Sequence record: DRR723986_2433
Length of the DNA stretch: 64,000 nt
Strand: one strand, 5' to 3'
The notes beneath the pieces were generated by a model. It ran no database searches. It was not told where the DNA came from and was given only the letters and a program-made list of their open reading frames with translations. The stretch's first letter is position 1; each line of letters starts with the position of its first letter. The position numbers were made by a program, and so were the translations under genes. Below are positions 24,833 to 54,452 of this stretch, one piece after another.

Positions 24833-24862
24833 CAACGCAGTCGTCATTCTTACGAGGCTTTG

Positions 24863-25642
24863 ATGCAAAAACACTCTACGGTAGAGGTGTTGGGTTGCAG
24901 CGGCAGTATCGGTATTCCCGGACAAGGAACAACTAGCTTTCTGATCGACAGCGATATTTTGATCGATGCGGGCACAGGCCTGTGCGAACTTGATTTCGCC
25001 CGTCTCGAGCAAATTGAGCATGTATTGATTACCCATTCCCACCTGGACCACATTTGCGGTCTGCCCTTTTTGATCGACACGGTGGGTGTGGGGCGCAAAC
25101 GCCCACTGCGTGTTTACGCCACCCTCCCCACAATCAGGGCCTTGCAGCAACATATTTTCAATGAGGAAATATGGCCTGATTTCTCGAAAATTCCTACGGC
25201 AGAGAACCCGGTTCTGGAATATGTAGAGATACAACCGGAACAGGAACTGCTGTTCGGAGAACGCCGAATTACCACAGTGGAGGTGGATCACACCGTTCCA
25301 GCCGTGGGTGTTTTTTTGATTACACCCACCGGGGGTTGGTGCTTCTCCGGAGATACGCACCAAACAGACCGGTTATTCACTCTTATCAACCAGGCAAAAA
25401 AGGTAGATTATTTCTTTATCGAGGCTGCTTTTCCTGACAAAGAAAAATGGCTTGCAGATTTGGCCAAGCATTTGTGTCCAAGTTTGTTGTTTGGTGAGCT
25501 TCAAAAATTAAACGCAGCATGTGAAATCTGGATTAGTCACCTAAAACCCAGAGAGCACGACCAGATTCAAAAAGAGTTACAGCAGTATCCGGGAAGCCAG
25601 CCGCTGCGCATTCTATCGGCCGGAATGATTTTTAACATTTAA
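24863..25642 (+). CDS. Class II 3',5'-cyclic nucleotide phosphodiesterase (MBL fold)
   Basis: VLGCSG, IDAGTG, THSHLDH, FNEEIWPDF, HTVP, SGDT, SHLKP; no signal peptide, so cytoplasmic. Confidence 0.82.
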   Translation: MQKHSTVEVLGCSGSIGIPGQGTTSFLIDSDILIDAGTGLCELDFARLEQIEHVLITHSHLDHICGLPFLIDTVGVGRKRPLRVYATLPTIRALQQHIFNEEIWPDFSKIPTAENPVLEYVEIQPEQELLFGERRITTVEVDHTVPAVGVFLITPTGGWCFSGDTHQTDRLFTLINQAKKVDYFFIEAAFPDKEKWLADLAKHLCPSLLFGELQKLNAACEIWISHLKPREHDQIQKELQQYPGSQPLRILSAGMIFNI

Positions 25643-25660
25643 CGGTTACACCACATTTCT

Positions 25661-27304: not shown

Positions 27305-27315
27305 GGAAAGACACC

Positions 27316-32694: not shown

Positions 32695-32705
32695 GGACCA
32701 ACAAC

Positions 32706-34163: not shown

Positions 34164-34176
34164 TGGTGGTTGAGGC

Positions 34177-36441
34177 ATGAGCAAATTGATCAAGTCCTGG
34201 CGAAAAATTGCAGGCAAGGCGTTTCGCATCGGTGTGGGTTTTTCGTTCACGGCAGTCGCTTTGCTGCATGTGTTGGGCTTCGCACCCAGCGAAGTGGTGA
34301 AGCGTCTGGACTACTTGGTTTATGACGTGCGGCTGCGGGCCGAGGCACAATTGCCTGAGCTTGATCCTCGCATTGTGATTGTCGATATTGATGAACAAAG
34401 CCTGAGCGAGGTGGGGCGTTGGCCATGGTCTAGAGATGTAGTGGCCAAGCTGGTTGTGGAGCTAACCGATCGGCTAGGCGCCGCCGCGGTTGGTTTTGAC
34501 ATTGTGTTTGCCGAGCCTCAGCAAAGTGATGCGCTTTTGGCCCTGGATACCATTATTGAAAACAAGCCTGCTCTGGGTAGCCAGATTCGGGATTTGCGAA
34601 CCGGAATTCAAGCGCAGTTCGATCGAGACGCGCAGTTGGCCGAGGTTCTGGCTGACCGGCCTGTCGTGTTGGGGTACTACCTGAATCAGGATCCAACAGC
34701 GCTGTCTGGCGCCCTTCCGTCAGCATTGTTCAAGAGAAGCCAGTTGGGTGAGTTGACCCTCGACAGTACAAGCTGGCAGGGCTATGGCGGCAACATCCCT
34801 GTGCTGCAGAAAAATGCAGAGGGTGGCTATTTCAATCCGATTGTGGATGAGGACGGCACCGTTCGCTCCATTCCGCTGCTTGCTCAATTCAATGATGCTT
34901 ATTACCAAAGTTTTGCATTGGGCACACTGCGGCGGGCCTTGGGTAACCCACAGGTGATACCTGTGTTTCCAGAAGGCGTTCCCGATGATTATGGTGCGGT
35001 GGAGCTGATTGCACTGAGATCTCCGGAAGTTGAGTTGGACATTCCAGTTGAACGTGGCTTGTTAACCCGTGTTCATTTCCGGGCCAAGGGTGGTCCGAAT
35101 GCTGGCGGCTATCGCTATGTGTCTGCTGCCGATGTACTTGCCGGTACATTGAAGCCCGAGGACATTGAAGGTCGAATTGTATTGATCGGCACTACAGCGC
35201 CAGGCCTGCTTGATTTGCGAAGTACACCCGTGAACCCGGCCTACCCGGGGGTAGAAGTGCACGCCAATGTGATCAGTGGCATGCTCGACAGCATTTATAA
35301 ACTTCGGCCCGAGTATTCGCAGGGTTTGTTGTTCATTACCGTGCTTGCCGTGGGTTTCGTGTTGAGTGTGATGATGCCGATTCTGAGCGCCACCTGGTCG
35401 CTGTTGGTTGCACTGGCGGTGTTGGTGGCCAGCGTGGCAGTCAATTCCTTGCTGTATTTTCAGGCAGGCCTGGTATTGCCGGTGGCGGTGGTGTTGTTGC
35501 TGGTGCTTGCCATATTCATGTTCGATGTGGCTTATGGATATTTGGCGGAATCGCGCAGCAAGCGGCAAATGGTGGATTTGTTCGGGGAGTATGTAGCGCC
35601 AGAATTGGTCTCTGAAATGGCAGCTGACCCCAAGCGCTATTCCATGGAAGGTGAAAGCCGCGAACTCACAGTGTTGTTTTCGGATGTCCGTGGTTTCACC
35701 ACGATTTCAGAGTCACTCAAACCCAATGAACTGCGCGAGTACATCAATGAATATCTCACGGTGATGTCCGAGATTATTCGCTCCCACCGTGGCACGCTGG
35801 ACAAATACATTGGTGATGCCATCATGGCCTTTTGGGGGGCACCCATTGCCGATGCTGAACATGCTGAATTGGCCACCAAAGCGGCCATTGCCATGCAGGA
35901 AGAAGCTGTACGTTTGAATGAGCGGTTGTTGGCACGCAATTGGCCCACGCTGGCCATTGGTGTGGGTGTGAACACCGGGCAAATGCGCGTGGGCGACATG
36001 GGCTCAAAAATTCGACGTGCCTACACCGTGATGGGCGATGCGGTGAACCTCGGTTCTCGACTGGAAGGCATTACCAAAACTTATGGCGTGGGCGTAATTG
36101 TTGGACCACAAACCAAAGCGGCTGTGCCCGGCATGGTGTTTCAAGAGCTGGATGCGGTGAAGGTGAAGGGCAAGAACGAGCCTGTTTCAATTTATGCACC
36201 TTTGGGCGAGCACGCCACTTTGCCCGAAGCAAGCTTGAGCCAGTTGGAAAAATGGGATAAGTTTTTGGCTGCGTTTCGTGCCCAGAAATGGCAGTTGGCG
36301 CGTGAACTACTGGCTGGATTGCAGGGCAGTGTGGTGACGAATCCTGTTTTGCATACCCTGTACGAAAACCGTATCGCGTACTTTGAACTGAATCCCCCAC
36401 CTGAAAACTGGGATGGTGTCACCCAATTTGACACGAAGTAA
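34177..36441 (+). CDS. CHASE2-domain class III adenylate cyclase
   Basis: CHASE2 (IVDIDEQSL, GRWPWSR, FDIVFAEP, PGVEVHAN), three TM helices, cyclase LFSDVRGFT, DKYIGDAIMAFWG, YTVMGDAVNLGSRLEG. Confidence 0.92.
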   Translation: MSKLIKSWRKIAGKAFRIGVGFSFTAVALLHVLGFAPSEVVKRLDYLVYDVRLRAEAQLPELDPRIVIVDIDEQSLSEVGRWPWSRDVVAKLVVELTDRLGAAAVGFDIVFAEPQQSDALLALDTIIENKPALGSQIRDLRTGIQAQFDRDAQLAEVLADRPVVLGYYLNQDPTALSGALPSALFKRSQLGELTLDSTSWQGYGGNIPVLQKNAEGGYFNPIVDEDGTVRSIPLLAQFNDAYYQSFALGTLRRALGNPQVIPVFPEGVPDDYGAVELIALRSPEVELDIPVERGLLTRVHFRAKGGPNAGGYRYVSAADVLAGTLKPEDIEGRIVLIGTTAPGLLDLRSTPVNPAYPGVEVHANVISGMLDSIYKLRPEYSQGLLFITVLAVGFVLSVMMPILSATWSLLVALAVLVASVAVNSLLYFQAGLVLPVAVVLLLVLAIFMFDVAYGYLAESRSKRQMVDLFGEYVAPELVSEMAADPKRYSMEGESRELTVLFSDVRGFTTISESLKPNELREYINEYLTVMSEIIRSHRGTLDKYIGDAIMAFWGAPIADAEHAELATKAAIAMQEEAVRLNERLLARNWPTLAIGVGVNTGQMRVGDMGSKIRRAYTVMGDAVNLGSRLEGITKTYGVGVIVGPQTKAAVPGMVFQELDAVKVKGKNEPVSIYAPLGEHATLPEASLSQLEKWDKFLAAFRAQKWQLARELLAGLQGSVVTNPVLHTLYENRIAYFELNPPPENWDGVTQFDTK

Positions 36442-36471
36442 AACGAAGTGATTCAACCCAACTTAGTCGGA

Positions 36472-38934
36472 TTAGATCAGTTCGTTTTGCTGGTTCAAAT
36501 ACACCTCGGGTGAAATTCGGAATGCCGCGCCAGTAGGGCAGGCACGAACGCAAGCCGGGCCGCCATCTTTGCCGTGGCACAAGTCACACTTGTATGCCTT
36601 CTTGACGGAATTGGCGTCGTACTTTACCGGGCGTTCTCCCAGAGGGCCACCCGCGCCGAACAGCAGCCAAGACAGCAAACCGGTTTTTCTGGGAGGTGGT
36701 TTCACCCTCAATTCAATCGCATTGTAAGGGCAGTTTTTGGCACAGTTACCGCAACCAATGCAGGTGTCTGCAATCATGACTTCACCTTTTTCATTGCGGC
36801 GAATGGCATCCGGTGGGCAGTCTTTCATGCAGTGTGGCTGTTCACAGTGTCGACAGGAATGCGCCAGATGAATATTCTGAAAGGTGGGTCCAGCATCGCG
36901 ATCCAGGCGAGGTATTCCATCGTGAGTTTCTGCGCAGGCACGTTCACAATTGTCACAGTGCACGCACAGGTTTTCATCAATGACCAGGGCGTTGGTGGCA
37001 TCGCCCAAACCTTGTTTCATCAAAAAGTGAATTAAATCGCTTTCGCGTTTCGCAGTACTTTCCCGAAAAATGGCGTCGTGAACGCGTTTGCCAATTTTGG
37101 CCTGAAGAGCCTTTTTCCAATTGCTGTTTTTGCTCAACACATCGATGACCGCATCGGCTTGAATCAATAACACCTCGGTCAATACCGTGGCTGTGCATGT
37201 GGTCTGTCGATCTGTTCCATCCACGAGGTCTATTTCCCCGACATAGCTGCCTGCAGACACATAGGAAAGCACCGAGTCTTGGTCGTCAATCAACTTGGAC
37301 ACTGCAACGGATCCGCGCCGAATCAAATGCAAGCCGTCGGTTTTATCGCCTTCACTGAACAGTTTTTCACCTCGCACATAGCGGGTCACACTGATGCCTG
37401 ACGCAATCAGTTGTTCAATTTCATGCGCTTCAAGTTGCGGCGCAAGGTGTGTAGACAGAGCTCGACGTACGAACGTTTCATCAAGGGTTCGGCGCACCGC
37501 GTCTACTGAGGCGATCAGCTTCAGCATGGCCTTGCGGGGCGTTTCGATCAATACGCAGTTTTCACCTGCGTACACTGTCGCCGTGCGGCGTCGCCCGGAG
37601 ATCAGGCCCATCTCGCCAAAATAATTGCCTTTGTCGAGATTGAGAATGAAAGGTTTGCCGTCTTTGTTCACCAATTCAATGCCAACACCACCCTGCACGA
37701 TGGCAAAGAAAGTGCTGGTGTAGTCACCTTTGTGGAAAATGACTGAACCTTTCTTGGGTTGGTGAAGCGTTGATTCCAGCATGAATTCGCGCAGCTGAAG
37801 TCGGGTCATCTGGTTGAACAGTGGAACATTCTCCAGAATCATGTCCAGCACGGCCGAGACGGAAATATTTCCCAGGGGTTTGAACTTCTCAGCCAACAGT
37901 GGCTCGTCAGCGGGTACTACCGGCAAGCCCATGATGGAATCCACCACCTCATGGCCTTGGTTCATTGCTTGTTTGATCAAAGGATATCCGCCCAGCGCAC
38001 CGACGATGAACAGGCCGGGCACGTTGGATTCATAAGTTTCGCTAAGCGCAGGCACTGCGTTGGGATCGCTGTTGGGGAATGTCACCCCGAAGCTTTCAAC
38101 CAGGCCACGAGGCGGAGTCGCGCCCAAACGGGCAATAATTCGGTGCACAGGCATGGCCTGCTCACCTTCGGGGCCTTTGTAGCGGTAGTTGAGTGTGGGT
38201 TCTCCCTCCTTGGCCCCGGGTATCTCCTCGACTGCACTAGTGCTGGTGTTGTAGAAGATACGCAAATCTTCATTCCTGTCTGCTGCAAGAATCTGGTTCA
38301 GGTTGCCTTCTTTACAGCGGGCAAATTCATCTTTGCGGTTGATCAGCACCACCTTGTTGTTCTTCATCAAGGCCAGGGCGTTTTCAATGGCGGCATCACC
38401 CGCACCAATCACAATGATGATCTCATTGTTGAACTCATCGGGGTCAGCCAGGGTGTATTGAACATTGGGAAGGTCGTCACCAGCAGTTCCAATTTTTCGG
38501 ATATTGCCCTGTAAACCAATACCCAAAATCACCGTACGGGCGGTGGTTGTGGTTCCATCCTCGCAGGTCAGCTCGAACGGTCCGGCACCATTATTGAGTT
38601 TGCTGATCTTGCTGACTGTTTTCTTGTATTGAATATTGATTTTTTGATTAAGCAGCTGCGAATCCCAGGTGCCAAGAATACTTTCCCGCTTTCCAGCCTC
38701 AAATGACATGCCACTGCGAAGGGGCAGAAAGCTGGGCTCAGCCATCACATGCTTGCCTTTTTGGTACTTGTAAATTGTGTCCGATGCATGGCTTTCTGAT
38801 TCGAACAGCACGTACTTGCAACCCAGTTGCTGCGCGCGCGCCGCCGCAGACAAACCTGCCGGACCCGAGCCTACGATGGCGATATCCAGTTCAGCGGGCA
38901 CATCGGCAAACATGGGTTTGAGATTGTCTTGCAT
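36472..38934 (-). CDS. Fusion: TrxB/YpdA-like FAD/NAD(P)H oxidoreductase + two cNMP-binding domains + four-cluster [4Fe-4S] (DmsB/NrfC-like) domain
   Basis: GSGPAG and GAGDAA Rossmann motifs; FGEMGLISGRRRTATV and VGEIDLVDGTDRQTT; 16 Cys in CVHCDNCERAC, CRHCEQPHCMKDCP, CIGCGNCAKNCP, CDLC..CVRACP. Confidence 0.85.
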   Translation of the reverse strand: MQDNLKPMFADVPAELDIAIVGSGPAGLSAAARAQQLGCKYVLFESESHASDTIYKYQKGKHVMAEPSFLPLRSGMSFEAGKRESILGTWDSQLLNQKINIQYKKTVSKISKLNNGAGPFELTCEDGTTTTARTVILGIGLQGNIRKIGTAGDDLPNVQYTLADPDEFNNEIIIVIGAGDAAIENALALMKNNKVVLINRKDEFARCKEGNLNQILAADRNEDLRIFYNTSTSAVEEIPGAKEGEPTLNYRYKGPEGEQAMPVHRIIARLGATPPRGLVESFGVTFPNSDPNAVPALSETYESNVPGLFIVGALGGYPLIKQAMNQGHEVVDSIMGLPVVPADEPLLAEKFKPLGNISVSAVLDMILENVPLFNQMTRLQLREFMLESTLHQPKKGSVIFHKGDYTSTFFAIVQGGVGIELVNKDGKPFILNLDKGNYFGEMGLISGRRRTATVYAGENCVLIETPRKAMLKLIASVDAVRRTLDETFVRRALSTHLAPQLEAHEIEQLIASGISVTRYVRGEKLFSEGDKTDGLHLIRRGSVAVSKLIDDQDSVLSYVSAGSYVGEIDLVDGTDRQTTCTATVLTEVLLIQADAVIDVLSKNSNWKKALQAKIGKRVHDAIFRESTAKRESDLIHFLMKQGLGDATNALVIDENLCVHCDNCERACAETHDGIPRLDRDAGPTFQNIHLAHSCRHCEQPHCMKDCPPDAIRRNEKGEVMIADTCIGCGNCAKNCPYNAIELRVKPPPRKTGLLSWLLFGAGGPLGERPVKYDANSVKKAYKCDLCHGKDGGPACVRACPTGAAFRISPEVYLNQQNELI

Positions 38935-38937
38935 GGT

Positions 38938-40290: not shown

Positions 40291-43200
40291 TTAATCCTTT
40301 CTGAAAGCCACTGAATTGACTTTGGGCTTGGGCAGGTAGTTTTCTTTTTCAACCTTGTCGGTCACGGTCCACAGGCGGCCATCGGGGCGAAGGTAAAACG
40401 CCTCCATTTCCTTGCGGGTGAAGGGGCGTGAACCAATGCGACCAAACACGGCAATTTGCCCGCCTGTCTCATCCACGGCGCGATCCCGGTCCAAACCTTT
40501 GGATACCGACAAAGCCGGACTGGGTGTTTTTCGCCATGCAATCAGTTCAGGCATGGGCGCAGGCGAGAATCCATAGAATCTCGGCTGCGTGTCAGGCGAG
40601 GTCAGTTGCAAAACCTTCAAACCATTGACACCGTCCGCCACATAGGCAAACAGGGAGGCATTGGTGGAGCCCACCACCACATCATGTGCGTCATTCAGTT
40701 GCCCGTCTGCAGTAAATTGTTGGTACACCACGGGCTTGCGCGGGCGTTCAATGTCGACAATCACCAAGCCCTGTTTTTTAGCCGCCACATAGGCGTAGGT
40801 GCGTGCCAAATAAACCCGTTGTGCATCTGCCATGGGTACCACGGCACCGGTGTGTTCGGGCTTCTCAGGGTGGGTAATGTCGATCACTTCCAGCCCTTTG
40901 GCTGTGGTGGCAAACAGGTAGCGGAATTGCACCGCTGTGGCACGAGCATCCTGCAAGGGCAGGGTGGTAATGTGGCGCGGCTTCAGCGGGTTGTTGATGT
41001 CAACAAACACCAGCCCCTTCGGCGTGGTGATGTAAGCGTAGTGCCCGCCCAAGGTAATGTGGCTTGCACCGTTCAACACCCCGTTTTCGTTCCAGGTTAC
41101 CGCGCGCTCGAAAAAGTTGTTGCGAGGCTCGCCGTCTGCCAGCGTGTTCACATTCACTGCAATCAGGCCTTCTTGGCTGTCGGTGATAAAGGCGTAGTTG
41201 TAGATGGGGTGGAAGGGCTGTTCCATATTGGTAACGCGCATCAGGTCGCCCTGGTTTTTCTCGGGGTTGATGGGCTGGTTGGTGGGTAGGGCCATGCAAG
41301 TCGCATTTTTGGAAGCCACATGGGTGTCGTGGCCAAGTGGGCTGAACGGTGCGGTGATCACGCGTTGCCCATAGCCTTTGTTGGCCACACTGGCTGCGTC
41401 ATAAGCGCGGAAACCGCCTTTGCCCTCTGCCACAAACACATATTCTCCGCGCAGCTGAATGCAACTGGCCACGCCTTTGGTGGTGTGGTCCATCAGCGCG
41501 GGCACCACGGTATCAGCCAGTTCTCGATTGCGATTCAAGTGGTTTTGATAATAGTCAGGGTAAGCGTACTTGTGCAGATAGCTGCCCAGCACGGCCTGCG
41601 GTTCGTCCCATTCGGTTACGGTAACCGCTGCAATGTGCTCTGTGCCGCCCAGCCATGCATTGAACCCGATGAAGTTCACAAAGTTTGTGCCTTGTAACAA
41701 CAGCTGCGCCATGATGGCGTTGTTGTCATCCTCGCGTGACAGATGGCAATCGCTACAGGTTTTTGTTTCTTCCTTGCGCTCGGTGTGTGGGTAGTGCGGT
41801 GCAAAGGCTTGCGATGAAAAACCGCTTGCAGCAATGGGTGGCTGTTGAATGTAAATGCGCTCCCGGTTCGCATTCATCGATGAAAGAATCAAGGCCGAAC
41901 TTGAACGAATTGGCGCAATGCGGTTGCCTTTCACCGGGCCATGCACGCCCAGCTGGAACATGTCGTCGCGCGCCACTTGTGGGTTGTAGGTGGCGTAGTT
42001 TCGGGTTTCTCCACCCTCATAATGCAGGCGCTCGGTTTTCCAGTTGGCTTGAATGGGCAGGTGGCAACCTGCACAGCTGGTGGTCCAGCTCAGGTGGCAG
42101 GTAAAGCAGGTCATCTTGTCGTTGTCGTGCGCCAGCTCTTTTACGCCTGGTCCCCATTTCCCGTCTTGGCCTTCTGCACCAGCACCCATCAGTTTGGCGC
42201 GTGCAGCTTTGGCGTTGTACTCAGGGTGTGCCGGGTTCATATTGTCTTTGACCAGGCTCATTTCCCATTCTTTGTTGGGGTCGAGTGCGGCGCGCTGGTA
42301 CAGTTTGCCATCTCGCCATTCGAAGCGTTTTCGGCCGTCCTGGGTTCGCAATTGGGTCAGATCAGTCCCGCCGGGTGGCGCAGCAGGCCCGCTGGTGCGC
42401 AAAGTGGGGTATTTGGTGGCGGTGCCATGACAATCGGCACAATCCACTTCAACTGCAGCAGCCACTTCGCCATAAATGTGACCATTGCCGTGCATGTCTT
42501 GCGCAAAGTGACAATCAACGCAGTGCATGCCCACGTCGAGGTGAATTGAACTCAGGTGAACGGCTTTGTCGAATTTTTTGGGGTCGTCGTCGGCAACCAC
42601 ATTGCCCTGCGCATCCAGCAAAGCACCTTTGCGGTTGCGCTTGAAAACTGCACGGAAGTTCCAGCCGTGCCCGTGGTAATCGGCAAATTGCGTGTCTTTC
42701 AGTTTGCTGTTGAGCGTTGAAACGTTTTTGAGGAATTCGGGGTCGCTCCACTTGCCACGCACCGCGGCTTCTTCGGGGTTGCGATCCAGAATTTCACGCA
42801 TTTCTGAATCGGTGGGGTAACGTTGCTTTTCCGGCCACATGTGCGGTGCATCGCTTTCGTAGTCCCACATGATGTAGCCGTAATAGCTGTTCACAAACAC
42901 GTTGGGCTGGTGCATGTGGCACACCATGCACTGCGAGCTTGGAATGGCGCGTGTGAATTCATGCTTCACCGGGTGACCACTTTCGTTTTTTGCAATGGTC
43001 GGGTCAATGGTTTGCGTGGTGCCATCATGACCCAACTTGGCGTAGGGCCCTGCATGCTTTGGGTCACGGTCGTTGGTGTAAATGGTGTGGCAGCCCGTAC
43101 AACCCGATGAACGGTAGTCACCGGGTTGCTCATTGGTGCCCAGGAACCAAAGATGCGGATCGTTCAAACGGGTCTTGGTCACGTTGATCAAGGGCACGGC

Positions 43201-44190
43201 AATACGCTGGCCGGTGCCAGGGCCCCGGTTGGATTGCTTGATGTCGGGTCGCCCCGGTTCGTCCAGTCGCTGAATTTGGCCCAAGACGTTGGGTAAACCC
43301 ACTTCAGGAAATATGCTGTTGATCACTTTGCCGCCACGTTCGAACACGCGGAATATATCGCCAGGGGGCGTGGTTTCCCAAGCGGGCAAGGGCGCCAGTT
43401 CATTCAGAATACCCTTGTGAACAAACAGCTCGTTGTTGGCCTCCACCGGGTTTTTCAGCAAACCGGGTTTTCCGTCTTGCGTGTAGGCCTCGCCCAGAAT
43501 GTAGCGTTTGTAAGGCAAAATTCCATTGTTGTACGAGGCTCCACCCCACAACATGGCCGATGTACTCATCAAGCTGCGCTCTTGGGCCTGAATGATCGGC
43601 AAGTGGCATGCACCGCAGGCTTCGCGTGCCACTCGCAAGTCACCGGGGTTGACGAAGCGGATGTAGGCAGGGTGTTCCTTGTTCAGCTTGGCGTACGAAC
43701 GCCTTGGGTTGGCCGACGAAGGGTAGTTCCAGAACTTTTCGTTTCGAGGCGCAATGTGGGCTTTGTCCAGTGCGGCTCTATATTCAGGAGCAAAGCCCTT
43801 TTCTCGCGCTGCGCGGGTGTGGTCATAGGCCAGCGTGCCTTGCTTTTGCTCTTTGCCATCCCATTTCACGGTGGCGTCACCACCATGGCAATCGGTGCAA
43901 CCCAACACCACACCGGGGTTGGCGTGCATGGTGTGTTCATCTGTCTGTGTGTGGCAGCTCATGCAGCCTTCGGTTTTAGCAAAGGCCTCCTGTGCAGTTT
44001 GCCGTTCAGGTGCATGGGGTGCCATGGTGTAGCTTTTTTCAGGCAACTTTTCACTGGCTGCATGGGCTACATCGTTGATAAGTAATGTGCAAACAGTCGC
44101 CACCGCGAAACCCAAGCCAAGCAGCCAGCCCTGCCAGCGATCGTTGCTGGCGGGCTTTGTGGGAGGAGCAATGGCGTTATTCAAATTCAT
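40291..44190 (-). CDS. Large exported decaheme cytochrome c with C-terminal LVIVD-repeat beta-propeller
   Basis: Signal peptide ending AHA; 10 CxxCH (CMSCH, CTDCH, CGACH, CTGCH, CMVCH, CVDCH, CADCH, CFTCH, CAGCH, CSDCH); repeats GLVFVDINNP, GLEVIDITHP, GLVIVDIERP. Confidence 0.88.
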   Translation of the reverse strand: MNLNNAIAPPTKPASNDRWQGWLLGLGFAVATVCTLLINDVAHAASEKLPEKSYTMAPHAPERQTAQEAFAKTEGCMSCHTQTDEHTMHANPGVVLGCTDCHGGDATVKWDGKEQKQGTLAYDHTRAAREKGFAPEYRAALDKAHIAPRNEKFWNYPSSANPRRSYAKLNKEHPAYIRFVNPGDLRVAREACGACHLPIIQAQERSLMSTSAMLWGGASYNNGILPYKRYILGEAYTQDGKPGLLKNPVEANNELFVHKGILNELAPLPAWETTPPGDIFRVFERGGKVINSIFPEVGLPNVLGQIQRLDEPGRPDIKQSNRGPGTGQRIAVPLINVTKTRLNDPHLWFLGTNEQPGDYRSSGCTGCHTIYTNDRDPKHAGPYAKLGHDGTTQTIDPTIAKNESGHPVKHEFTRAIPSSQCMVCHMHQPNVFVNSYYGYIMWDYESDAPHMWPEKQRYPTDSEMREILDRNPEEAAVRGKWSDPEFLKNVSTLNSKLKDTQFADYHGHGWNFRAVFKRNRKGALLDAQGNVVADDDPKKFDKAVHLSSIHLDVGMHCVDCHFAQDMHGNGHIYGEVAAAVEVDCADCHGTATKYPTLRTSGPAAPPGGTDLTQLRTQDGRKRFEWRDGKLYQRAALDPNKEWEMSLVKDNMNPAHPEYNAKAARAKLMGAGAEGQDGKWGPGVKELAHDNDKMTCFTCHLSWTTSCAGCHLPIQANWKTERLHYEGGETRNYATYNPQVARDDMFQLGVHGPVKGNRIAPIRSSSALILSSMNANRERIYIQQPPIAASGFSSQAFAPHYPHTERKEETKTCSDCHLSREDDNNAIMAQLLLQGTNFVNFIGFNAWLGGTEHIAAVTVTEWDEPQAVLGSYLHKYAYPDYYQNHLNRNRELADTVVPALMDHTTKGVASCIQLRGEYVFVAEGKGGFRAYDAASVANKGYGQRVITAPFSPLGHDTHVASKNATCMALPTNQPINPEKNQGDLMRVTNMEQPFHPIYNYAFITDSQEGLIAVNVNTLADGEPRNNFFERAVTWNENGVLNGASHITLGGHYAYITTPKGLVFVDINNPLKPRHITTLPLQDARATAVQFRYLFATTAKGLEVIDITHPEKPEHTGAVVPMADAQRVYLARTYAYVAAKKQGLVIVDIERPRKPVVYQQFTADGQLNDAHDVVVGSTNASLFAYVADGVNGLKVLQLTSPDTQPRFYGFSPAPMPELIAWRKTPSPALSVSKGLDRDRAVDETGGQIAVFGRIGSRPFTRKEMEAFYLRPDGRLWTVTDKVEKENYLPKPKVNSVAFRKD

Positions 44191-44206
44191 CAACAAACAA
44201 CCTGCC

Positions 44207-46456
44207 TTAAAAACTCAAAATCACGTTGAACAAAAACGAGTAAGGGTCTTTGTCTTCCGGGAACAATTCTTTGTAGCCCTTGCCCGGTAAAAGTTTGGCA
44301 AACGACCCGTTCACCACAATGTTTTGCGAGAAGAAGGGGCGGTACTGAAAACCCACCGACGCATCAATACCCAAATCCGTGGATGGTGGGCGTTGCTGGC
44401 GCAAGGTGCCCAGCACATTGGTGTTGTCGAATTCAAGCTTGTTGACGTTGGCCACCAAACGAAGCTCGGGCAATACATCAATATCGGCACCAATACCCAG
44501 CAGCAACAGGCCTGGGTTGATGAAATTCGATTGCCCCTGTTCTTTACTTGAACGCAGGGAAGGCAACACACCGTTTCGGCCTGACAAAGCTACACCACCA
44601 CCGCCAATCAAAGGAATATTCTGACGGATGAAAAAGCTGGTGTCGGCACCTGCAAACTGGGGGTTCTCGAATATGGCATCGAAGCCCTCGGCTTTTCCAT
44701 CAAAAGGATCTTCGTCGCCCGACGCATACAGGAAGCTGCCACGCAAACGGAACCAGTCAAAGTCGCGCGACAATTCTGTGGCGTGAAAGAATGCATCAAT
44801 GTCTTGCTCGCGCTGGGCAAGCGGGTGCCTGTCTGTTTTACCCGTGGCGTAGTAGGTTGACGTGGTAATGTTCATGCGGCCGTAGTGGCCATCACCGCTG
44901 AACCCAAAATAGTCCACATGGTAGCCAAACGGCTTTTGATCGCCCAGCGAGGAGGGCCGAGCGAGAAATCCGTTCGCGTCAAAGTAACGTTCACCGTCTT
45001 CATCGTTGCGGTTGTGGATGTAAGAAACCTGACTGGTGAAACCCAAAAACGGAAAGTCTTGCCGGTACAGGTTGGCCACGAAAAAATCATCGTCACGCAG
45101 GTCTTGCCGAATATCATTCAGACCACTGTTGGTGTCTTTTTCAACCCGCTTGAAATAGCCGATGTTGTATTGGTAAATGTTGTTGTTGCGGTTGCCGAAC
45201 AGGCGAATGCCCATGGGCAGGTCTTGGAACAGAAAGCCCCGGAAGTCGCTGATGAATGGCTGAATACCTACACGCAAGCTGTCGAAATCGTAGCGATCTG
45301 ACACGTTGCGAAGGTGCACGTCGACAAATGCTTCCTGAATACCCACAAACCCTTCACGGCGAACATCGCCGGAAGAAGAGGCAATTTTCAGCAAGCGGTC
45401 TTCATTGACGCGCACATCGGTGTAGTTGAACACCGGTGTTAAACGGAACTCATAGTCGGGTGGTTTGAAAGTAGTGTTGCCTTTGGTCAACGACAAACTC
45501 ACGATCAAGTTGTGGGCAAAAATCGATTGCTCACCATCACCGAAAATATTGGCCTGCCCACCAGTGGTGGATGTGGCTGGCGGTACAGGCACCGGAAAGT
45601 TGCGTTGCTCGTACAGCGTGTCGGCAATAATACCCAAGTTAAAAAACCAGTCGGGGCCCAGTGTGTTTTGCAACACCGGCAGGTCGCCCTTGATCACGTT
45701 TTGGTTGTAGGGGTCGAACAGCGGAAACTTGAAACCCAGCGACTGCATGATGCGCCAGCGATCAGGCACTGCCACTGTTTCGCGTGGCAGGTTGGGCAAA
45801 GGTGGGGGCACCTGGCTCGGGTCGATCACGGGTATGGCAATGTCACGCGGCACAATGGGTGTGTCGCGGCCAGGAATGGCGCGCTGTACCTGCGGTGTTT
45901 GTGGAATTGTGTTGGGGACTATGCCCGGTGTGGCAGTGCTTGAAGGGCGTATGCCAGTGCCTGCTTTGTCTTGCAGCACATCGGCTGAAAATGCACGGGG
46001 CGCAAATACGCCGAGCGATTGTTCACCGTACTGGCCGGTGCCTTGTTGCACCCAGCCGTCGGTGCTGCCCAGGAAGCCACCCAAGAGGCTGTCTTGAATA
46101 CGAACTCGATACCAGCCGTCTTTCTCTTCATAGGCATCGACCAACTGACCTTTGAAAAACTCGCCAATCGCGCGAGACTCCTTGTTGGGTTTTGTGTACA
46201 CCACGCTTCGGTTGTCAAACACTTGCAGCAACACCAGCGGGCGTTCGGCGTTTTCAAGTTCCGCAACTTCCGGAATGCCAGCCACTTTCCGGGTAACTTT
46301 CTCAACGGTTTCTGTCACCTGGGCAACAAGGTTGGGCTTTGTTTCGCTGCGAATATCCGCCCGAATTTGTGCAATTGCGGGCACGGGCAGCAAGCCAGCC
46401 AAAATCAGCCCAATGGCCAGTGGTTTCAAACGCATGATGTTGTTGTTTTTCTTCAT
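44207..46456 (-). CDS. Outer-membrane beta-barrel with N-terminal SH3b-like domain
   Basis: Signal peptide; SH3-like VYTKPNKESRAIGEF...DGWYRV...DGWV; Pro-rich linker; aromatic beta-strands; C-terminal beta-signal FLFNVILSF; ATGA overlap with upstream gene. Confidence 0.72.
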   Translation of the reverse strand: MKKNNNIMRLKPLAIGLILAGLLPVPAIAQIRADIRSETKPNLVAQVTETVEKVTRKVAGIPEVAELENAERPLVLLQVFDNRSVVYTKPNKESRAIGEFFKGQLVDAYEEKDGWYRVRIQDSLLGGFLGSTDGWVQQGTGQYGEQSLGVFAPRAFSADVLQDKAGTGIRPSSTATPGIVPNTIPQTPQVQRAIPGRDTPIVPRDIAIPVIDPSQVPPPLPNLPRETVAVPDRWRIMQSLGFKFPLFDPYNQNVIKGDLPVLQNTLGPDWFFNLGIIADTLYEQRNFPVPVPPATSTTGGQANIFGDGEQSIFAHNLIVSLSLTKGNTTFKPPDYEFRLTPVFNYTDVRVNEDRLLKIASSSGDVRREGFVGIQEAFVDVHLRNVSDRYDFDSLRVGIQPFISDFRGFLFQDLPMGIRLFGNRNNNIYQYNIGYFKRVEKDTNSGLNDIRQDLRDDDFFVANLYRQDFPFLGFTSQVSYIHNRNDEDGERYFDANGFLARPSSLGDQKPFGYHVDYFGFSGDGHYGRMNITTSTYYATGKTDRHPLAQREQDIDAFFHATELSRDFDWFRLRGSFLYASGDEDPFDGKAEGFDAIFENPQFAGADTSFFIRQNIPLIGGGGVALSGRNGVLPSLRSSKEQGQSNFINPGLLLLGIGADIDVLPELRLVANVNKLEFDNTNVLGTLRQQRPPSTDLGIDASVGFQYRPFFSQNIVVNGSFAKLLPGKGYKELFPEDKDPYSFLFNVILSF

Positions 46457-48462
46457 GGTGCTGGGCATACGTTTTGTTCACTGCTGTTGTTGAACGGAGT
46501 TTGCGGACACTGCACATACTTCAAAAACTCGCCTGAATTGGATAATTCATTGGCAGTCAGCAAGGTGGAGGGGAATGGGCGCATGGTGCTACCTACTGCT
46601 GCAGCTCCGTTGATTACACCCAGGTAGCCAATCATGTCGTCCTGGTCCACGCCGTCACCGGACACACCAATTGCACCTACCAATGTGTCGCCTTTATAAA
46701 TCGGGAAACCTCCCGGGAAAATCTGCATACCATTGGCGAAGCGGCTTTGTCGGCCTGCGGGAATATTCACGTCGTCAACACAGGTGAGTGCGGCTGGGGG
46801 TGAGAACTGATTTGCTGCGCGCGTGGTCGCTGTCAGCGTACCCAATACCTTGTTGGTCACAATGTTCAATTGAAAGCCAACGTTGAAAGGGCTCCATTGA
46901 GAGATTGGTGATGAAAGTGGGCCTGTTGGCGTACCCACCTCGCCGTCTGGAAAGTAGGGGCGGTGCACGTTGCCGATTGCGCGCGCTGAAAATGCCTTGC
47001 TGCCATTCAGGGAACTGGCCTGCCCGGTAAAAAACGTGTCCATGGCAATTGCGAAAGACGCGTGTGGTCCGTCGGTGTTGGATGGGGGTGGGGCAGAATC
47101 AATCGATTTAAAATCGCTCAACGCTTCTGACGAGCTGAATGCTAGCGCCGAGCGCGCTTTTTGTACCGATACATCAGTACCAAATATCGGTGCGTCTGAC
47201 GAGCGAACCAAGCCTAGAATATCTCCGTCAAGATCAACCACAGACACCGTGACTTCCGCTGGAGAACCCAAAGGATTTCTGATTTGCGCACGAGCGCGGT
47301 TCGCAATCTTCATACCCTCGACCAGAATATTCTGCACCTCGGCTTGCGTCAGGTTCGCTCCGGCAGTCGGCGGAAAGCGCACCGAGGTGTTGTCAGCGGG
47401 GTTGGTAATCAGGGTAAATGTGTTCAGGCCATTGAAAGCTGGGGCGGTGGTTGCTACGTAACCGGATTGACTGGTCCCGTAAGAGGTGCCCGCGATTACA
47501 TCCGCAACTTCTTTGTAGCCGGTAACCGCTACAAAATTTCCATTCCCAGCCAGCGCCGCGGCGCCAGCCATTGCGGGTGTGGTGTTGGAAAACTGAAAGG
47601 TTTGACCGTTTGCAGTAATACGATTTGCGCGAATTTGAGCGGGCGCACGGAAAGCCTCAGGCAGTGCGGCAAATGCGATCTCTTCTTCAAGGTCTACTTC
47701 ATTGGTGAGGATGTCACGGTCCAGCCCGTAAACGCCTTGGGTACCCGCATCGGTGGATGCAATCACGCCGATACCACCGATCACCCGACCTTCCTGATAG
47801 ATCGGAAAGCCACCAGGATCTGCTGACAATCCCAATGGTGATCGTTTTGGGCCGATGGTCGCATTTTGTGAAAGCCACACATTCAGATCAGAGCAGGGAA
47901 GTTGGCTAAACTGCACACCATACAGTGGGCCGCTGGGCTGGCCTGTTTCCCCGGGTTGGAAAAATTCCTGAACAATTTGGCTGGCTGTGCGGGTGCTGAA
48001 TGCGTTCCCGGTTGAAGACAAATAAGCTCCGGTAATTGCTTTGGCAATGGCCGCCAATTCACTGGGTACAGGTGTGAATCCGTCAAGGCCTCTGCCATTG
48101 GCACCACTCAGTCCGCTTGTGATCACTACAGATGGACTGGAGTTGGTCATGCGATAAACAGCCAACACATTGCCCACACGGTCGGTGATTGCGATGGTTG
48201 ATTGCACACCTCTGGAAATGGACGCTTGTACCGCGCGGGCCACAATGTCGTTGACCTCCGGGATGGAGAGACTTTGCGTGCCCAAAGGCTCAACATTGAA
48301 ATTGGGTTCAGACGAGCTTCCACCGCCACCCCCGCCACCGCAAGATACCAAGATAAATGGTGTTGCAAGGCAAACTGCCACTCCCATGGCAATCCGTTTT
48401 AATTGTGCTACCGAGCCTTTTACGGCGTATGTGCCGGTTGCTGCATCTGTGCGTTTTCGCAT
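46453..48462 (-). CDS. Lipoprotein with two GlcG/HbpS (DUF336) heme-binding domains
   Basis: Lipobox LVSC followed by poly-Gly; two copies of IAIT/VSVV-D..G...KA...GGFPIY..G..IGV. Confidence 0.8.
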   Translation of the reverse strand: MRKRTDAATGTYAVKGSVAQLKRIAMGVAVCLATPFILVSCGGGGGGGSSSEPNFNVEPLGTQSLSIPEVNDIVARAVQASISRGVQSTIAITDRVGNVLAVYRMTNSSPSVVITSGLSGANGRGLDGFTPVPSELAAIAKAITGAYLSSTGNAFSTRTASQIVQEFFQPGETGQPSGPLYGVQFSQLPCSDLNVWLSQNATIGPKRSPLGLSADPGGFPIYQEGRVIGGIGVIASTDAGTQGVYGLDRDILTNEVDLEEEIAFAALPEAFRAPAQIRANRITANGQTFQFSNTTPAMAGAAALAGNGNFVAVTGYKEVADVIAGTSYGTSQSGYVATTAPAFNGLNTFTLITNPADNTSVRFPPTAGANLTQAEVQNILVEGMKIANRARAQIRNPLGSPAEVTVSVVDLDGDILGLVRSSDAPIFGTDVSVQKARSALAFSSSEALSDFKSIDSAPPPSNTDGPHASFAIAMDTFFTGQASSLNGSKAFSARAIGNVHRPYFPDGEVGTPTGPLSSPISQWSPFNVGFQLNIVTNKVLGTLTATTRAANQFSPPAALTCVDDVNIPAGRQSRFANGMQIFPGGFPIYKGDTLVGAIGVSGDGVDQDDMIGYLGVINGAAAVGSTMRPFPSTLLTANELSNSGEFLKYVQCPQTPFNNSSEQNVCPAP

Positions 48463-48565: not shown

Positions 48566-50032
48566 TTACTTCGCTGCCACTTCTTTGTTGTGTATATGGT
48601 ATTCGTGGCATACGCCACAGTTGGACTGAACTTTGTTTAACACGGGTTTGCTGCCTGCATGGCAAGTTTGGCATCCCTCAATGGTGGGCATCAGCACATC
48701 GCTGGCTTCCTCTGATTTGCTTGCTTTGTGACAACTTTCACAACTTTCAAATTCGTGTGCTTTGTGATCAAACTTGGCCATGGGCATCCAAGGATGGGCA
48801 GGATTGATCTCGGCAATCTTGTACTGCGGCATTCTGGATCCGGAAGTCTTGGTGTTACCCAAGCCATCCACCGCCTTTACTTCGTGGCACACAGAGCAGG
48901 CCGTATTTTCAAACAGCTCCACTGTTGCAAATGCTGCTTGTGCACGGGGGTTTCCGCTCAAGTTTCGCAAGTTGGAGCGATTCGGGTCTTTTTCACCGGG
49001 GCGCGCGCGCAACACCGCACGCTGTGCATTCACTTTGTTGCGTTCTTCGGGGTGCAAAGCCAAATAACTATAGAACTCTTCAACCGTGCTGAGCACTGCA
49101 TCAACAGGGCCGTGGGGCACTTGCCGATCGGGCAGGGCTGGCTCAAAACTCAGCTTGTGGCACTCCTGGCAGTGGCTTTCCATGTTGAGTGTTTTAAACC
49201 CGGTTGCGGTATCTGCTGGCTCGTGGCAGTTGGCACATTCCATCACCACTTTCTTGCTTGGGCTGTCAATACCCTTTGGGTCTAGGTGAACATCGTGCGG
49301 AAACTTCAGGTTCGTTTTTTCAACAATCGGTGTGTTGGCCGCCATGCGGATACGACGCAAATCACTGGGTTCAGGGCCTGTGGCCACAGTAATCCGAAAT
49401 GCTGGGTGTTTGTCGCCGGCGAAGTCGCTGGCAGCAAGAGTTTCAGTTTTTGGTGCCACAGTTTTAATGTCGGTGTGGCAAGCTGCACAGTCGGCACCTA
49501 CAAAATGTTTGTTCTGTTCTGCGAGGCTTTCGCGTCCTTTGTGATCGCGGTGACAGCTTGCGCAACGGCCTTCTTCGAATGACGTGTCGGGCAGTGTTTG
49601 CTCGGTTACATGTAAGCCCATATTGCCGTGGCATACCAGGCAGCTTTCATCTTTGACACGCGAGAAGTTGCCGGCGTGGCAAGCCTGGCAATCGGCCTCC
49701 AGGTTCGAGTGGACGGAAGCCAGCGGACCAGGGTTCCAGATGGAATCCAAGGCCAGTGCCGTGGTACTGCGTGTGTTTGAAACCTGTGTGCTTTGAACAC
49801 TGGGATGCGCGTTAACAGGCAGTTTTTCAGCAGACACTACCTGTGGTTTTACGTTTGAACCGGCGGGCTCAAGGCCAAACAGCCCAGGTGCCTGAATCGC
49901 CACCAGGGGTAAAATAAAAAATGCGAAAAGAATCGGTACAAAAAGCAACCAGGAAAGTGGGCGTTTCAGCCCCAGGGGCTTTTGCAAGGCCTGTTGCTCA
50001 CGTTGAAGCGGGCTTTTTTCTTGTTCGGCCAT
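48566..50032 (-). CDS. Membrane-anchored decaheme cytochrome c (c3-like)
   Basis: N-terminal TM (WLLFVPILFAFFILPLV); 10 CxxCH (CQACH, CLVCH, CASCH, CAACH, CANCH, CQECH, CSVCH, CESCH, CQTCH, CGVCH); distal-His patterns FPHDVH, FDHKAH. Confidence 0.9.
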   Translation of the reverse strand: MAEQEKSPLQREQQALQKPLGLKRPLSWLLFVPILFAFFILPLVAIQAPGLFGLEPAGSNVKPQVVSAEKLPVNAHPSVQSTQVSNTRSTTALALDSIWNPGPLASVHSNLEADCQACHAGNFSRVKDESCLVCHGNMGLHVTEQTLPDTSFEEGRCASCHRDHKGRESLAEQNKHFVGADCAACHTDIKTVAPKTETLAASDFAGDKHPAFRITVATGPEPSDLRRIRMAANTPIVEKTNLKFPHDVHLDPKGIDSPSKKVVMECANCHEPADTATGFKTLNMESHCQECHKLSFEPALPDRQVPHGPVDAVLSTVEEFYSYLALHPEERNKVNAQRAVLRARPGEKDPNRSNLRNLSGNPRAQAAFATVELFENTACSVCHEVKAVDGLGNTKTSGSRMPQYKIAEINPAHPWMPMAKFDHKAHEFESCESCHKASKSEEASDVLMPTIEGCQTCHAGSKPVLNKVQSNCGVCHEYHIHNKEVAAK

Positions 50033-50038
50033 GTTCGC

Positions 50039-50854
50039 TTACCAGTAAATAAAAACAGACAACACATGCGCAATCAACGCAGCCAGCAAACCAAACGACA
50101 AAGGCACATGGATGGATAGCCACAGCTCAAGCCAATATCGCAAGTGGTAATAACGGCGCAGTTGTCTCAATGCGCGCAGTCGCTGCACCTGGTTTCTGTA
50201 TAAGTCAGAGAGACTGTCAACCCGTGTCATTTCCTGTTGCAGGTCATTCACGGCTTTCTCGGTGGCGCAGTCTTTCACTACGCCTTTGCGCTGACTGCTG
50301 CGATCCGGGTAGATGCTTTGCTTGTGAGAAGCGGCAATGATTCGTCCCACCAGGTCACCGGAATTCTTGATTTGTTTTTGAGCTTCGCGGTCCAAGGCCT
50401 GAATCTGTTCCACAATTTGCTCGGGACTTTGCCGATTCAGTACGTTTGACATTTCTGCGGGATACCGCAAGTAAAAACTGAGGCCCCAAACGCCTGTGCC
50501 AATGGTCGCCATCGTCAACACATAGGCCAATGAATGCACGTTCCAGCCAATCTGAAAACCTGTGTGCAATGTGGCAACCACCGACAATGCCAAGCCCAGA
50601 TAAATATGCGCCGACACCCAGCCACGCAGGTTGCCTGTCTCATTGGCATACTGGCGTTTGCGTACACCAAACCACATGAGCCAAAGAATGAGTAGGGCAC
50701 CTATGGTGCCAAGGGTATAGCCCAACCAGGTTCCGCCATTGGCATTGATTCTGGGTTGGTCAAAAAGGTAGGCAAACGACGAAACGAGCGTTAGCAGCAA
50801 GGCCCATTTCAGGAAAACAAATCGTTTGTAGTTGAACAGGTTGTCCTGAATCAT
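50039..50854 (-). CDS. Integral membrane protein with four TM histidines (putative di-heme b, ferric-reductase-like)
   Basis: About 5 TM helices; His pairs SAHIYLG...TLHTG and SIHVPLS...IAHV. Confidence 0.65.
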   Translation of the reverse strand: MIQDNLFNYKRFVFLKWALLLTLVSSFAYLFDQPRINANGGTWLGYTLGTIGALLILWLMWFGVRKRQYANETGNLRGWVSAHIYLGLALSVVATLHTGFQIGWNVHSLAYVLTMATIGTGVWGLSFYLRYPAEMSNVLNRQSPEQIVEQIQALDREAQKQIKNSGDLVGRIIAASHKQSIYPDRSSQRKGVVKDCATEKAVNDLQQEMTRVDSLSDLYRNQVQRLRALRQLRRYYHLRYWLELWLSIHVPLSFGLLAALIAHVLSVFIYW

Positions 50855-54260: not shown

Positions 54261-54278
54261 AGGGCAAAAGGCAAAACA

Positions 54279-54452
54279 ATGATTCTTGATGCATGGCAAA
54301 CAATTTGGGCTTGCGTGGGTTTAAGCCTCTTGATTCTGTTTGTGGATGGTGTGCTGGCCGGTCGAGCGGGCCCCAGCAAAACCGATCTGGTTCGTCAAAA
54401 AAAGAGAGATGACCGAATGGTTGGGCTCAGTAAAGGGGTAGGTAATGAGTAA
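54279..54452 (+). CDS. ccmD: Probable CcmD (57 aa, absent from ORF track)
   Basis: [57 protein letters not shown]: single TM + basic tail, between ccmC and ccmE. Confidence 0.7.

Follow-up and report, generated by a model that had tools for sequence, protein, structure and literature searches.

The stretch of DNA analysed here, a window of 64,000 nucleotides from the sequence record DRR723986_2433 to which all positions below refer, carries on its minus strand (36472-38934) a single open reading frame that starts with ATG and encodes a protein of 820 amino acids (residue numbers are those of this protein). In it a flavoprotein module, two cyclic nucleotide-binding (cNMP) domains and an iron-sulfur (Fe-S) domain for four [4Fe-4S] clusters follow one another, and its gene is the seventh and last of a tightly packed minus-strand operon that encodes several multi-haem cytochromes. 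The probable role of the protein follows from this operon context, which an earlier note on the window had missed. On balance, and with modest confidence, we favour the view that it is the cytoplasmic electron-input subunit of this seven-gene multi-haem system and that the flux through it is controlled by a cyclic nucleotide.

In the mechanism that we propose, a module with the thioredoxin reductase fold would take a hydride from a reduced nicotinamide adenine dinucleotide, with or without the phosphate (NAD(P)H), onto flavin adenine dinucleotide (FAD). The electrons would then pass, one at a time, through the four [4Fe-4S] clusters to a five-helix, di-haem-type protein of the inner membrane, which would hand them across the membrane to c-type haems, some 24-25 in number, located in the periplasm and at the outer membrane. 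Placed between the flavin and this wire, the pair of cNMP domains would render the flux dependent on a cyclic nucleotide, which in Limnobacter is probably cyclic AMP (cAMP) coming from an adjacent CHASE2 cyclase that would sense the periplasm.

Domain structure and conservation of the protein

The protein and its parts are located as follows. Conservation is given as counts over 80 species loci or over 76 aligned relatives.

36472..38934, minus strand: whole open reading frame, 820 amino acids, flavoprotein - cNMP - cNMP - 4x[4Fe-4S] (from the reading frame and Pfam; Rossmann motif from residue 19)
37930..38892, minus strand: thioredoxin reductase-fold FAD/NAD(P)H module, residues ~15-335 (GSGPAG at 22-27, GAGDAA at 177-182, NRKDEFAR at 199-206, no CxxC)
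37444..37821, minus strand: cNMP-binding domain A, residues ~372-497, cassette GEMGLISGRRRTA (G440, E441 and R450 in 80/80)
37099..37443, minus strand: cNMP-binding domain B, residues ~498-612, divergent cassette GEIDLVDGTDRQTT (G566 in 80, E567 in 79 and R576 in 78 of 80)
37015..37125, minus strand: predicted long helix, residues 604-640 (37 residues), from domain B straight into the Fe-S domain (AlphaFold2 secondary structure)
36499..37002, minus strand: four-cluster [4Fe-4S] ferredoxin domain of the HydN/HycB type, residues ~645-812 (16 invariant cysteines)
36655..36681, minus strand: conserved hydrophobic stretch GLLSWLLFG, residues 752-760, between cluster motifs III and IV (W756 in 80/80)

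Pfam recovers these modules in the order proposed in the earlier note. Pyr_redox_3 matches residues 20-312 (E 1.2e-27) and Pyr_redox_2 residues 17-327, cNMP_binding (PF00027) matches two stretches with 117.3 bits (cut-off 27.5), and several Fer4 and 4Fe-4S models cover residues 650-810 (Fer4_11 with 38 bits, cut-off 26.2). The anatomy given in that note, including the exact limits of the reading frame (the strand was left unstated), is correct, and two refinements concern the type of the Fe-S domain and the second cassette. The protein has no signal peptide and is therefore cytoplasmic. None of the curated NCBIfam models reached its cut-off. The scores, with cut-offs in brackets, were 95.7 bits (339.9) for the YpdA model TIGR04018, 73 (343.45) for the thioredoxin reductase (TrxR) model TIGR01292, 65.8 (260) for HydN, 52.9 (214.1) for DmsB, 48.1 (377.6) for NrfC and 75.6 (1003) for AegA. 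We have discarded an assignment of the protein as a thioredoxin reductase, as YpdA/Bdr or as an ortholog of HydN, DmsB or NrfC, since these family cut-offs are missed and both the CxxC of TrxR and the cysteine of YpdA are absent.

A word-indexed protein search retrieved 5954 proteins at E <= 0.001, out of 7997 that were scored. The 120 relatives listed are 777-843 amino acids long, share 54-98% identity over at least 94% of the query and have an identical set of Pfam domains; where they bear a name, it is 'cyclic nucleotide-binding domain-containing protein' or a COG string. Among contigs representing one genome per species, at least 600 stretches matched, and at least 582 species genomes carry a relative. 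The closest among the matches listed, both at 98%, come from Limnobacter olei and L. alexandrii, which places the window in the genus Limnobacter. The family is widespread and uncharacterised, not rare, and is very common in Proteobacteria of soil, freshwater and marine environments.

The sensor pair finds its best sequence matches in the PDB among the regulatory chains of the protein kinases PKA and PKG (E 1e-16 to 1e-11). Like the CNB-A and CNB-B domains of these regulatory subunits, the two domains stand in tandem and carry Gly-Glu...Arg cassettes, but here the output is a redox module and not a kinase, and domain B reads R-Q-T-T instead of R-x-A-T. The Gly, Glu and Arg residues of both cassettes are kept in 78-80 of the 80 loci, and the residues expected of a nucleotide binder are therefore under strong constraint. 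The third position of the R-x-A triplet is looser. In the protein studied it is Ala in domain A (R-T-A) and Thr578 in domain B (R-Q-T), while across the 80 loci position 452 of domain A is Ala in 58, Ser in 14, Asn in 4, Gly in 2, Thr in 1 and Arg in 1, and position 578 of domain B is Ala in 67, Thr in 8, Ser in 3 and Glu in 2; Arg576 is replaced (by Lys) in two loci. The first cassette is canonical, as had been supposed. The second had been called degenerate, and it does diverge in this protein, with Thr for Ala, but it retains Gly, Glu and Arg and the divergence belongs to a subclade and not to the family: the window and its five closest loci (L001-L005) have GEIDLV(D/N)GT(D/N)RQTT in common, and other Limnobacter loci (L006-L009, L012) have the usual GEMAL..PRSAT. 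The second cassette of the protein thus appears to be a local variant. In the AlphaFold2 model (predicted local distance difference test score, pLDDT, 79; predicted template modelling score, pTM, 0.66) helices 344-386 join the flavodomain to domain A, and these, together with the long helix at 604-640, we take to be the elements that move in known cNMP domains.

All 16 cysteines of the four cluster motifs (C657/660/663/667, C694/697/702/706, C725/728/731/735 and C783/786/795/799) are invariant in the 76 aligned relatives and in the 80 loci. Residues 650-811 match best, at E 1.7e-15 to 1e-13, the HycB, HydN and HDCR HycB3-4 subunits (7z0s_B, 7qv7), and the HydN model matches the domain at E 3.4e-18. 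The earlier description of a DmsB/NrfC-like domain was right as to the 16 cysteines and the four motifs, but by score the domain lies nearer to HydN, HycB and AegA-N within the same superfamily. With its four motifs and its Fer4_11 score it falls into the PF13247 group of four-cluster ferredoxins. The HycB/HydN subunits also have sixteen cysteines in four cluster motifs; the differences are the score (65.8 bits against the 260 of the HydN equivalog), the additional conserved LSWLLFG, the fusion to sensors and flavoprotein, and a genomic context of cytochromes instead of a hydrogenase or a formate dehydrogenase. The hydrophobic stretch to which this motif belongs had also been noticed before, correctly, and may have a docking role. 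In the gammaproteobacterial orthologs of four loci (L071, L073, L074 and L077) an insertion of ~25 residues, partly rich in histidine (e.g. HHHHHH), comes right after LSWL(M/L)FG.

The flavodomain has the fold of two dinucleotide-binding domains with Rossmann motifs for FAD and NAD(P)H, as seen from Pfam, from the conservation of the motifs (GxGxxG in 79/80 loci, G177 and G179 in 80/80) and from Foldseek, where the model gave template modelling (TM) scores of 0.83 with YpdA (7a7b) and 0.86 with TrxR (5mh4), and 3r9u fell within the range 0.83-0.86. The absence of a CxxC active site from this fold, already remarked upon from the letters, holds well beyond this protein. In the HMMER alignment to the Campylobacter thioredoxin reductase 3r9u, C-A-T-C stands opposite T-L-A-D-P-D (residues 161-166), and the flavodomains of 75 of the 76 aligned relatives have no CxxC. 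The cysteine of the GGGPCG motif, which is important in YpdA/Bdr, falls opposite Ala26 in the alignment with 7a7b. NRKDEFAR (199-206) aligns with HRRDEFRA of TrxR, and this match to the NADPH-binding HRRxxxR, together with the presence of Arg200 in 80/80 loci, hints at NADPH as the electron donor. Like the protein, the TrxR-type ferredoxin-NADP+ reductases (3ab1, 2zbw, 3lzw) and YpdA/Bdr (7a7b) have a two-Rossmann fold that lacks the TrxR CxxC. They rank at the top of the structural matches, together with others, and have sequence E values of 1e-9 to 1e-12, but the identity is only 18-24% and no curated cut-off is reached. In these ferredoxin-NADP+ reductases a C-terminal extension stacks an aromatic residue on the flavin; in the model of our protein the chain leads after residue 335 into the sensor domains. 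The ferredoxin partner of the flavoprotein is here fused to it, with the sensor domains in between.

The operon and the presumed membrane-protein partner

Upstream of the gene, the other six members of the operon are, from its head:

50039..50854, minus strand: membrane protein, 271 amino acids, with HX13H pairs at H83/H97 and H249/H263 (five long helices and a helical loop predicted)
48566..50032, minus strand: decahaem cytochrome of the c7/c3 type, 488 amino acids, 10 CxxCH, with an N-terminal hydrophobic segment
46453..48462, minus strand: lipoprotein-like protein, 669 amino acids, with three HbpS-like stretches
44207..46468, minus strand: signal-peptide protein, 753 amino acids, with an SH3-like domain; presumed outer-membrane protein
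40291..44196, minus strand: decahaem cytochrome (10 CxxCH) fused to an LVIVD beta-propeller, 1301 amino acids
38938..40287, minus strand: c554-like tetrahaem cytochrome, 4 CxxCH and 1 Cx4CH, 3 nucleotides upstream of the flavoprotein fusion

Apart from a single gap of 103 nucleotides, the genes overlap or are separated by 3-10 nucleotides. The conservation of this context was assessed by tblastn of the window proteins on the 80 loci. In 67 of them the homolog immediately follows the tetrahaem gene, with the remaining operon genes further up where the flank reaches. Ten others (L066, L071-L077, L079 and L080, from Lysobacterales, Steroidobacteraceae and similar gammaproteobacteria) have a permuted order, namely homolog, membrane protein, decahaem, HbpS-like protein, outer-membrane protein and propeller decahaem; in L036 and L040 the flank is too short for judging the order. 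In all five betaproteobacterial genomes checked the membrane-protein gene is found at the operon head, ~1-2 kb beyond the fetched locus. The circular permutation means that the gene of the fusion protein adjoins that of the membrane protein whichever way the operon is written.

Contigs that cover the gene, from RNA libraries of two studies, are consistent with its transcription. Among the 19 runs listed, from nine studies, with at least half of the sampled words of the gene, eight are recorded as RNA. Two runs of one transcriptome study (from four RNA-library runs in two studies) gave contigs of 4.3 and 3.8 kb, over 35930-40158 and 35864-39593, which run across the boundary to the upstream cytochrome gene and have adapter sequence at their ends. 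One metatranscriptome run gave a single 25-kb contig of flat depth that looks like carried-over DNA.

At E <= 0.001 no Pfam family, Ferric_reduct (PF01794) included, is matched by the 271-residue membrane protein. The model of this protein (pLDDT 80.7) consists of five hydrophobic helices, all of them long, together with a helical loop at 132-212, which would face the cytoplasm according to the positive-inside rule, given the invariant R65-K66-R67. A fold search against 48,161 chains gave generic helical-bundle matches only, with Z values up to 9.8; for the di-haem CybB (5oc0) Z was 8.2, which is below a meaningful level for helical proteins. A few of its relatives have a precomputed PF01292 match and one is named 'Ferric reductase like transmembrane'. 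Across 39 relatives of the protein no variation is seen at the four histidines H83, H97, H249 and H263 or at W79 and W245. A (W)X3HX13H pair is carried by the inner-membrane proteins of the clusters PCC3 and PCC4, where, in the available text, it is likened to the haem-b sites of ferric reductases and NOX (He et al. 2017, PMC5566968). The membrane protein is presumed to be a di-haem b electron carrier and the partner of the fusion protein.

The link between the two proteins is also found within single predicted polypeptides. P0247 (1110 amino acids) has the flavo-cNMP2-FeS arrangement and, after it, a complete homolog of the membrane protein (32% identity over residues 2-271, E 2e-46), and in P0374 (730 amino acids) a cNMP2-FeS stretch is followed by a domain of the membrane-protein type (hhalign probability 97.8%). 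Both fusions speak for the Fe-S module and the membrane protein acting as one unit.

Probable source of the cyclic nucleotide and proposed role of the sensors

Convergent to the operon, the plus strand carries several genes of cyclic-nucleotide signalling:

34177..36441, plus strand: class III nucleotide cyclase with a CHASE2 sensor, 754 amino acids, convergent, 30 nucleotides from the stop of the fusion protein
24860..25642, plus strand: class II cAMP phosphodiesterase-like protein of the metallo-beta-lactamase fold
23093..24832, plus strand: cNMP-binding patatin-like phospholipase, another cyclic-nucleotide receiver

The whole string at 23093-36441 forms a cyclic-nucleotide signalling island on one strand and encodes, in order, the cNMP-patatin, the cAMP-phosphodiesterase-like protein, a ShlB-type transporter, a secreted protein of 1792 amino acids with a two-partner secretion (TPS) domain, a FecR-domain protein and the CHASE2 cyclase. 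Its ShlB-to-cyclase part is conserved in 10-11 loci of the Limnobacter clade. A scan of the 30-nucleotide convergent junction for a terminator or a promoter found nothing.

G001, the nearest complete genome (completeness 100%, with 82% of the sampled words of the window in common), has the CHASE2 cyclase as its only match to PF00211; no match to a class I or CYTH cyclase was found there, and five frames contain cNMP domains, one of these being a weak match. The 14 closest loci share at least 62% identity, and 12 of them (L001-L009, L012-L014) have the convergent cyclase. L073 has a weak cyclase match ~9.5 kb upstream of the homolog, and phosphodiesterase-like matches lie near the homolog in L010, L038 and L058. 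Class III cyclases were found in all 50 carrier genomes tested (1-27 matches each) and in 4 of 14 control genomes; an endogenous cyclic nucleotide would therefore always be available to the protein.

An action of a cyclic nucleotide on the electron path fits the conserved ligand residues and the position of the sensors between redox modules in several architectures; it also fits the cyclases of the 50 carriers and the adjacent cyclase of Limnobacter. A dedicated pairing of cyclase and receiver may exist, with support within Limnobacter only. The more specific idea that the CHASE2 cyclase acts there directly and post-translationally, its cAMP binding the sensor pair and switching on an NAD(P)H-driven export of electrons via two membrane haems to ~25 c-type haems, is one that we put forward as a tentative possibility.

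The modular architecture of the relatives bears on the step at which the nucleotide may act. A full-library search with residues 350-820 gave 531 cluster representatives at E <= 1e-30, and the best 150, among them the two fusions P0247 and P0374, were classified with domain profiles built for this analysis. The arrangement flavo-cNMP-cNMP-FeS does recur, in 36 of these 150, plus three with an N-terminal extension, and a flavodomain with only one sensor detected occurs in five. The conserved unit is nonetheless smaller: 23 have cNMP-cNMP-FeS with no detectable flavodomain, some of these being fragments (P0248, for instance, is a fragment that begins in the last helix of the flavodomain), and many other representatives are shorter pieces. 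Different modules are found at the N terminus. FHA modules stand in front of the flavodomain in P0269 (1134 amino acids) and are fused to the cNMP-FeS core in P0325 (743 amino acids), a ferredoxin module takes the place of the flavodomain in P0341 (601 amino acids) and P0389 (879 amino acids), an extra ferredoxin lies between flavodomain and sensors in P0313 (917 amino acids), and the N-terminal modules of P0348 and P0333 have no family match. Sensor-sensor-wire is thus the constant unit and the electron input the exchangeable part. This favours a control by the nucleotide of the coupling of the Fe-S module to its partners over a mechanism specific to the flavin, and the gated step could equally be the coupling of the Fe-S module to the membrane protein.

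These architectures weaken the mechanism of the earlier note, in which cAMP would swing the flavin module onto the first [4Fe-4S] cluster and close the gap between FAD and Fe-S, in the manner of the EF-hands of NOX5. The placement of the sensor pair between flavin and wire speaks for it, as do the helices of the model that lead into domain A on one side and from domain B into the Fe-S domain on the other, and the fact that enzymes of the thioredoxin reductase fold have been solved in two domain-rotation states, both among our matches (5mh4, FR; 5mjk, FO). A docking of the flavin accounts poorly, however, for the cores that have no detectable flavodomain, for those with FHA, ferredoxin or unmatched modules at the N terminus and for the ferredoxin that P0313 interposes between flavin and sensors, and we consider it rather unlikely. 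In the published ptd cluster, moreover, the available text describes the FAD/NAD(P) protein as the product of a separate gene (bioRxiv 10.1101/2023.11.21.568154).

The sensors might also not gate at all. They could serve as a scaffold, for dimerisation or for another ligand, and the protein would then feed the cytochrome chain as an NAD(P)H dehydrogenase that is constitutively active. Domains of the CRP/FNR fold elsewhere bind haem, 2-oxoglutarate or nothing, the alanine of the cassettes is often replaced, about five positions of the domain B cassette depart in this protein from the consensus of the family, and outside Limnobacter the cyclase is unlinked. A pure scaffold would, however, hardly explain why both cassettes keep the Gly, Glu and Arg that are the signature of nucleotide binders, nor why the pair finds its best PDB matches in the regulatory domains of PKA and PKG, and we regard a role of this kind as improbable.

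Several observations weigh against control of the electron flux by a cyclic nucleotide in a unit built as we propose. The alanine of the R-x-A triplet is replaced in 22/80 loci in domain A and in 13/80 in domain B, that of this protein included, and the strength of binding or the ligand may therefore differ. The convergent cyclase is absent from that position in all 66 other loci and is confined to the Limnobacter clade; an adjacency within one genus may simply be inherited synteny. With 1-27 cyclases in each carrier genome, their mere presence is a weak test. One locus, L028 (10001-12388, 54% identity), has no operon genes within 10 kb upstream and 7.6 kb downstream, the only such case in 80. 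The Fe-S domain was modelled at low confidence (pLDDT 45-79), the contigs from RNA libraries give presence only, with no strand and with possible carry-over of DNA, and a literature search found no experiment on any member of the family. P0247, finally, keeps the methionine of the membrane protein itself in frame, so that a lost stop, a sequencing error or a run-on of the gene caller is possible; a similar merged annotation is mentioned in the available text of He et al. (2017, PMC5566968).

The opposite direction of flow, with periplasmic cytochromes oxidising an external donor and the flavoprotein reducing NAD(P)+ or another cytoplasmic substrate, has been proposed for the related PCC4 cluster of iron oxidisers in what is available of that paper (He et al. 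2017, PMC5566968), but the operon encodes no energy-coupling subunit and we hold it to be very unlikely. It would suit Limnobacter as a thiosulfate oxidiser; on the other hand, the reduction of NAD(P)+ from donors at the level of cytochromes is thermodynamically uphill, and a membrane design like that of ferric reductases and NOX works outward.

Relation to known systems and neighbouring genes

By analogy, the system most resembles a split NOX or ferric reductase (FRE), to which an iron-sulfur wire would have been added and in which a cNMP sensor would replace the EF-hands. The proposed chain shares with these enzymes the cytoplasmic NAD(P)H, the flavin, two membrane haems on two HX13H pairs and an acceptor across the membrane. 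Here, however, the parts are separate polypeptides with a four-cluster Fe-S wire between flavin and haems, the flavoprotein is of the TrxR and not of the FNR type, and the sensor is a cNMP pair. In NOX5 the flux is controlled by a second-messenger sensor domain, the EF-hands, and the comparison with this enzyme drawn in the earlier note is made more apt by the two HX13H pairs of the partner membrane protein, which are typical of ferric-reductase/NOX domains. Bacterial electron chains are controlled mainly through gene expression, and we know of no description of second-messenger gating of any of them. The position of the protein at the cytoplasmic end of a multi-haem operon suggests that an electron chain may be under the direct control of a second messenger. 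If this is true, it would be a direct allosteric control of electron flow, exerted through a redox enzyme that carries its own cNMP sensors, and a second-messenger-gated branch of respiration or of extracellular electron transfer. The protein is soluble and could be assayed with NAD(P)H in the presence or absence of cAMP, offering a tractable biochemical entry to a multi-haem cytochrome system, and it could serve as a switchable part in bioelectronic circuits.

The closest published counterparts are two clusters known as predictions only, whose function is stated as unknown in the available texts: ptdABCDEFG, with PtdE, PtdC and PtdF (bioRxiv 10.1101/2023.11.21.568154), and PCC4 (He et al. 2017, PMC5566968). 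We have compared them with our operon by their published description. As far as the accessible text of the preprint goes, ptd has in common with our operon a 4Fe-4S protein that binds cNMP, a membrane protein resembling ferric reductases and carrying two HX13H motifs, a flavoprotein linked to NAD(P), a porin-like protein and three multi-haem cytochromes. The flavoprotein, here of the TrxR fold and fused to cNMP-FeS, is in ptd a separate gene product that its authors liken to flavohaemoprotein. The cytochromes have 10, 10 and 4(+1) haem motifs in our operon and 5, 4 and 10 in ptd, and our operon adds the lipoprotein with three HbpS-like stretches and the decahaem fused to a propeller. As described for PCC4 and ptd, a cNMP-FeS protein is encoded here together with a membrane protein of five helices and two (W)X3HX13H motifs; a separate FAD/NAD(P) gene with 4-, 5- and 10-haem cytochromes, also described for them, is not found.

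The fused form of the flavoprotein appears neither in the available text of the ptd preprint nor in that of He et al. (2017); the supplementary tables of these papers may list related clusters. LVIVD, cyclic nucleotide, FAD and cAMP go unmentioned in He et al. (2017, PMC5566968). Full-text literature searches on cNMP-binding with multiheme returned only the ptd preprint, and those on cNMP with 4Fe-4S and flavoprotein electron transfer returned none. LVIVD occurs in a Tenderiales preprint only for an unrelated surface protein, a Gallionellaceae pangenome paper and a preprint on multi-haem proteins in peat contained nothing relevant on this system, and nothing relevant was found in the literature on CHASE2, FecR and two-partner secretion. 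Three features are new here: a cyclase placed tail-to-tail with the gene (no second one was found in the nearest complete genome), operons in circularly permuted order, and predicted natural fusions to the presumed di-haem membrane partner.

Some further observations concern the surrounding genes. The decahaem fused to the propeller (40291-44196) has a short match to the model of the Geobacter cytochrome ExtM that is far below threshold (60 bits, cut-off 800). In loci of betaproteobacteria other than Limnobacter (L023, L024, L030, L034, L039, L042, L047, L050, L062, L063 and L078) two families of open reading frames of ~430-440 amino acids recur ~1-5 kb downstream of the homolog. Diverging from the operon head, at 50984-56840 on the plus strand, lie Ccm genes, encoding a CycH/CcmH-like protein, a CcmA-CcmB fusion, CcmC and CcmF.

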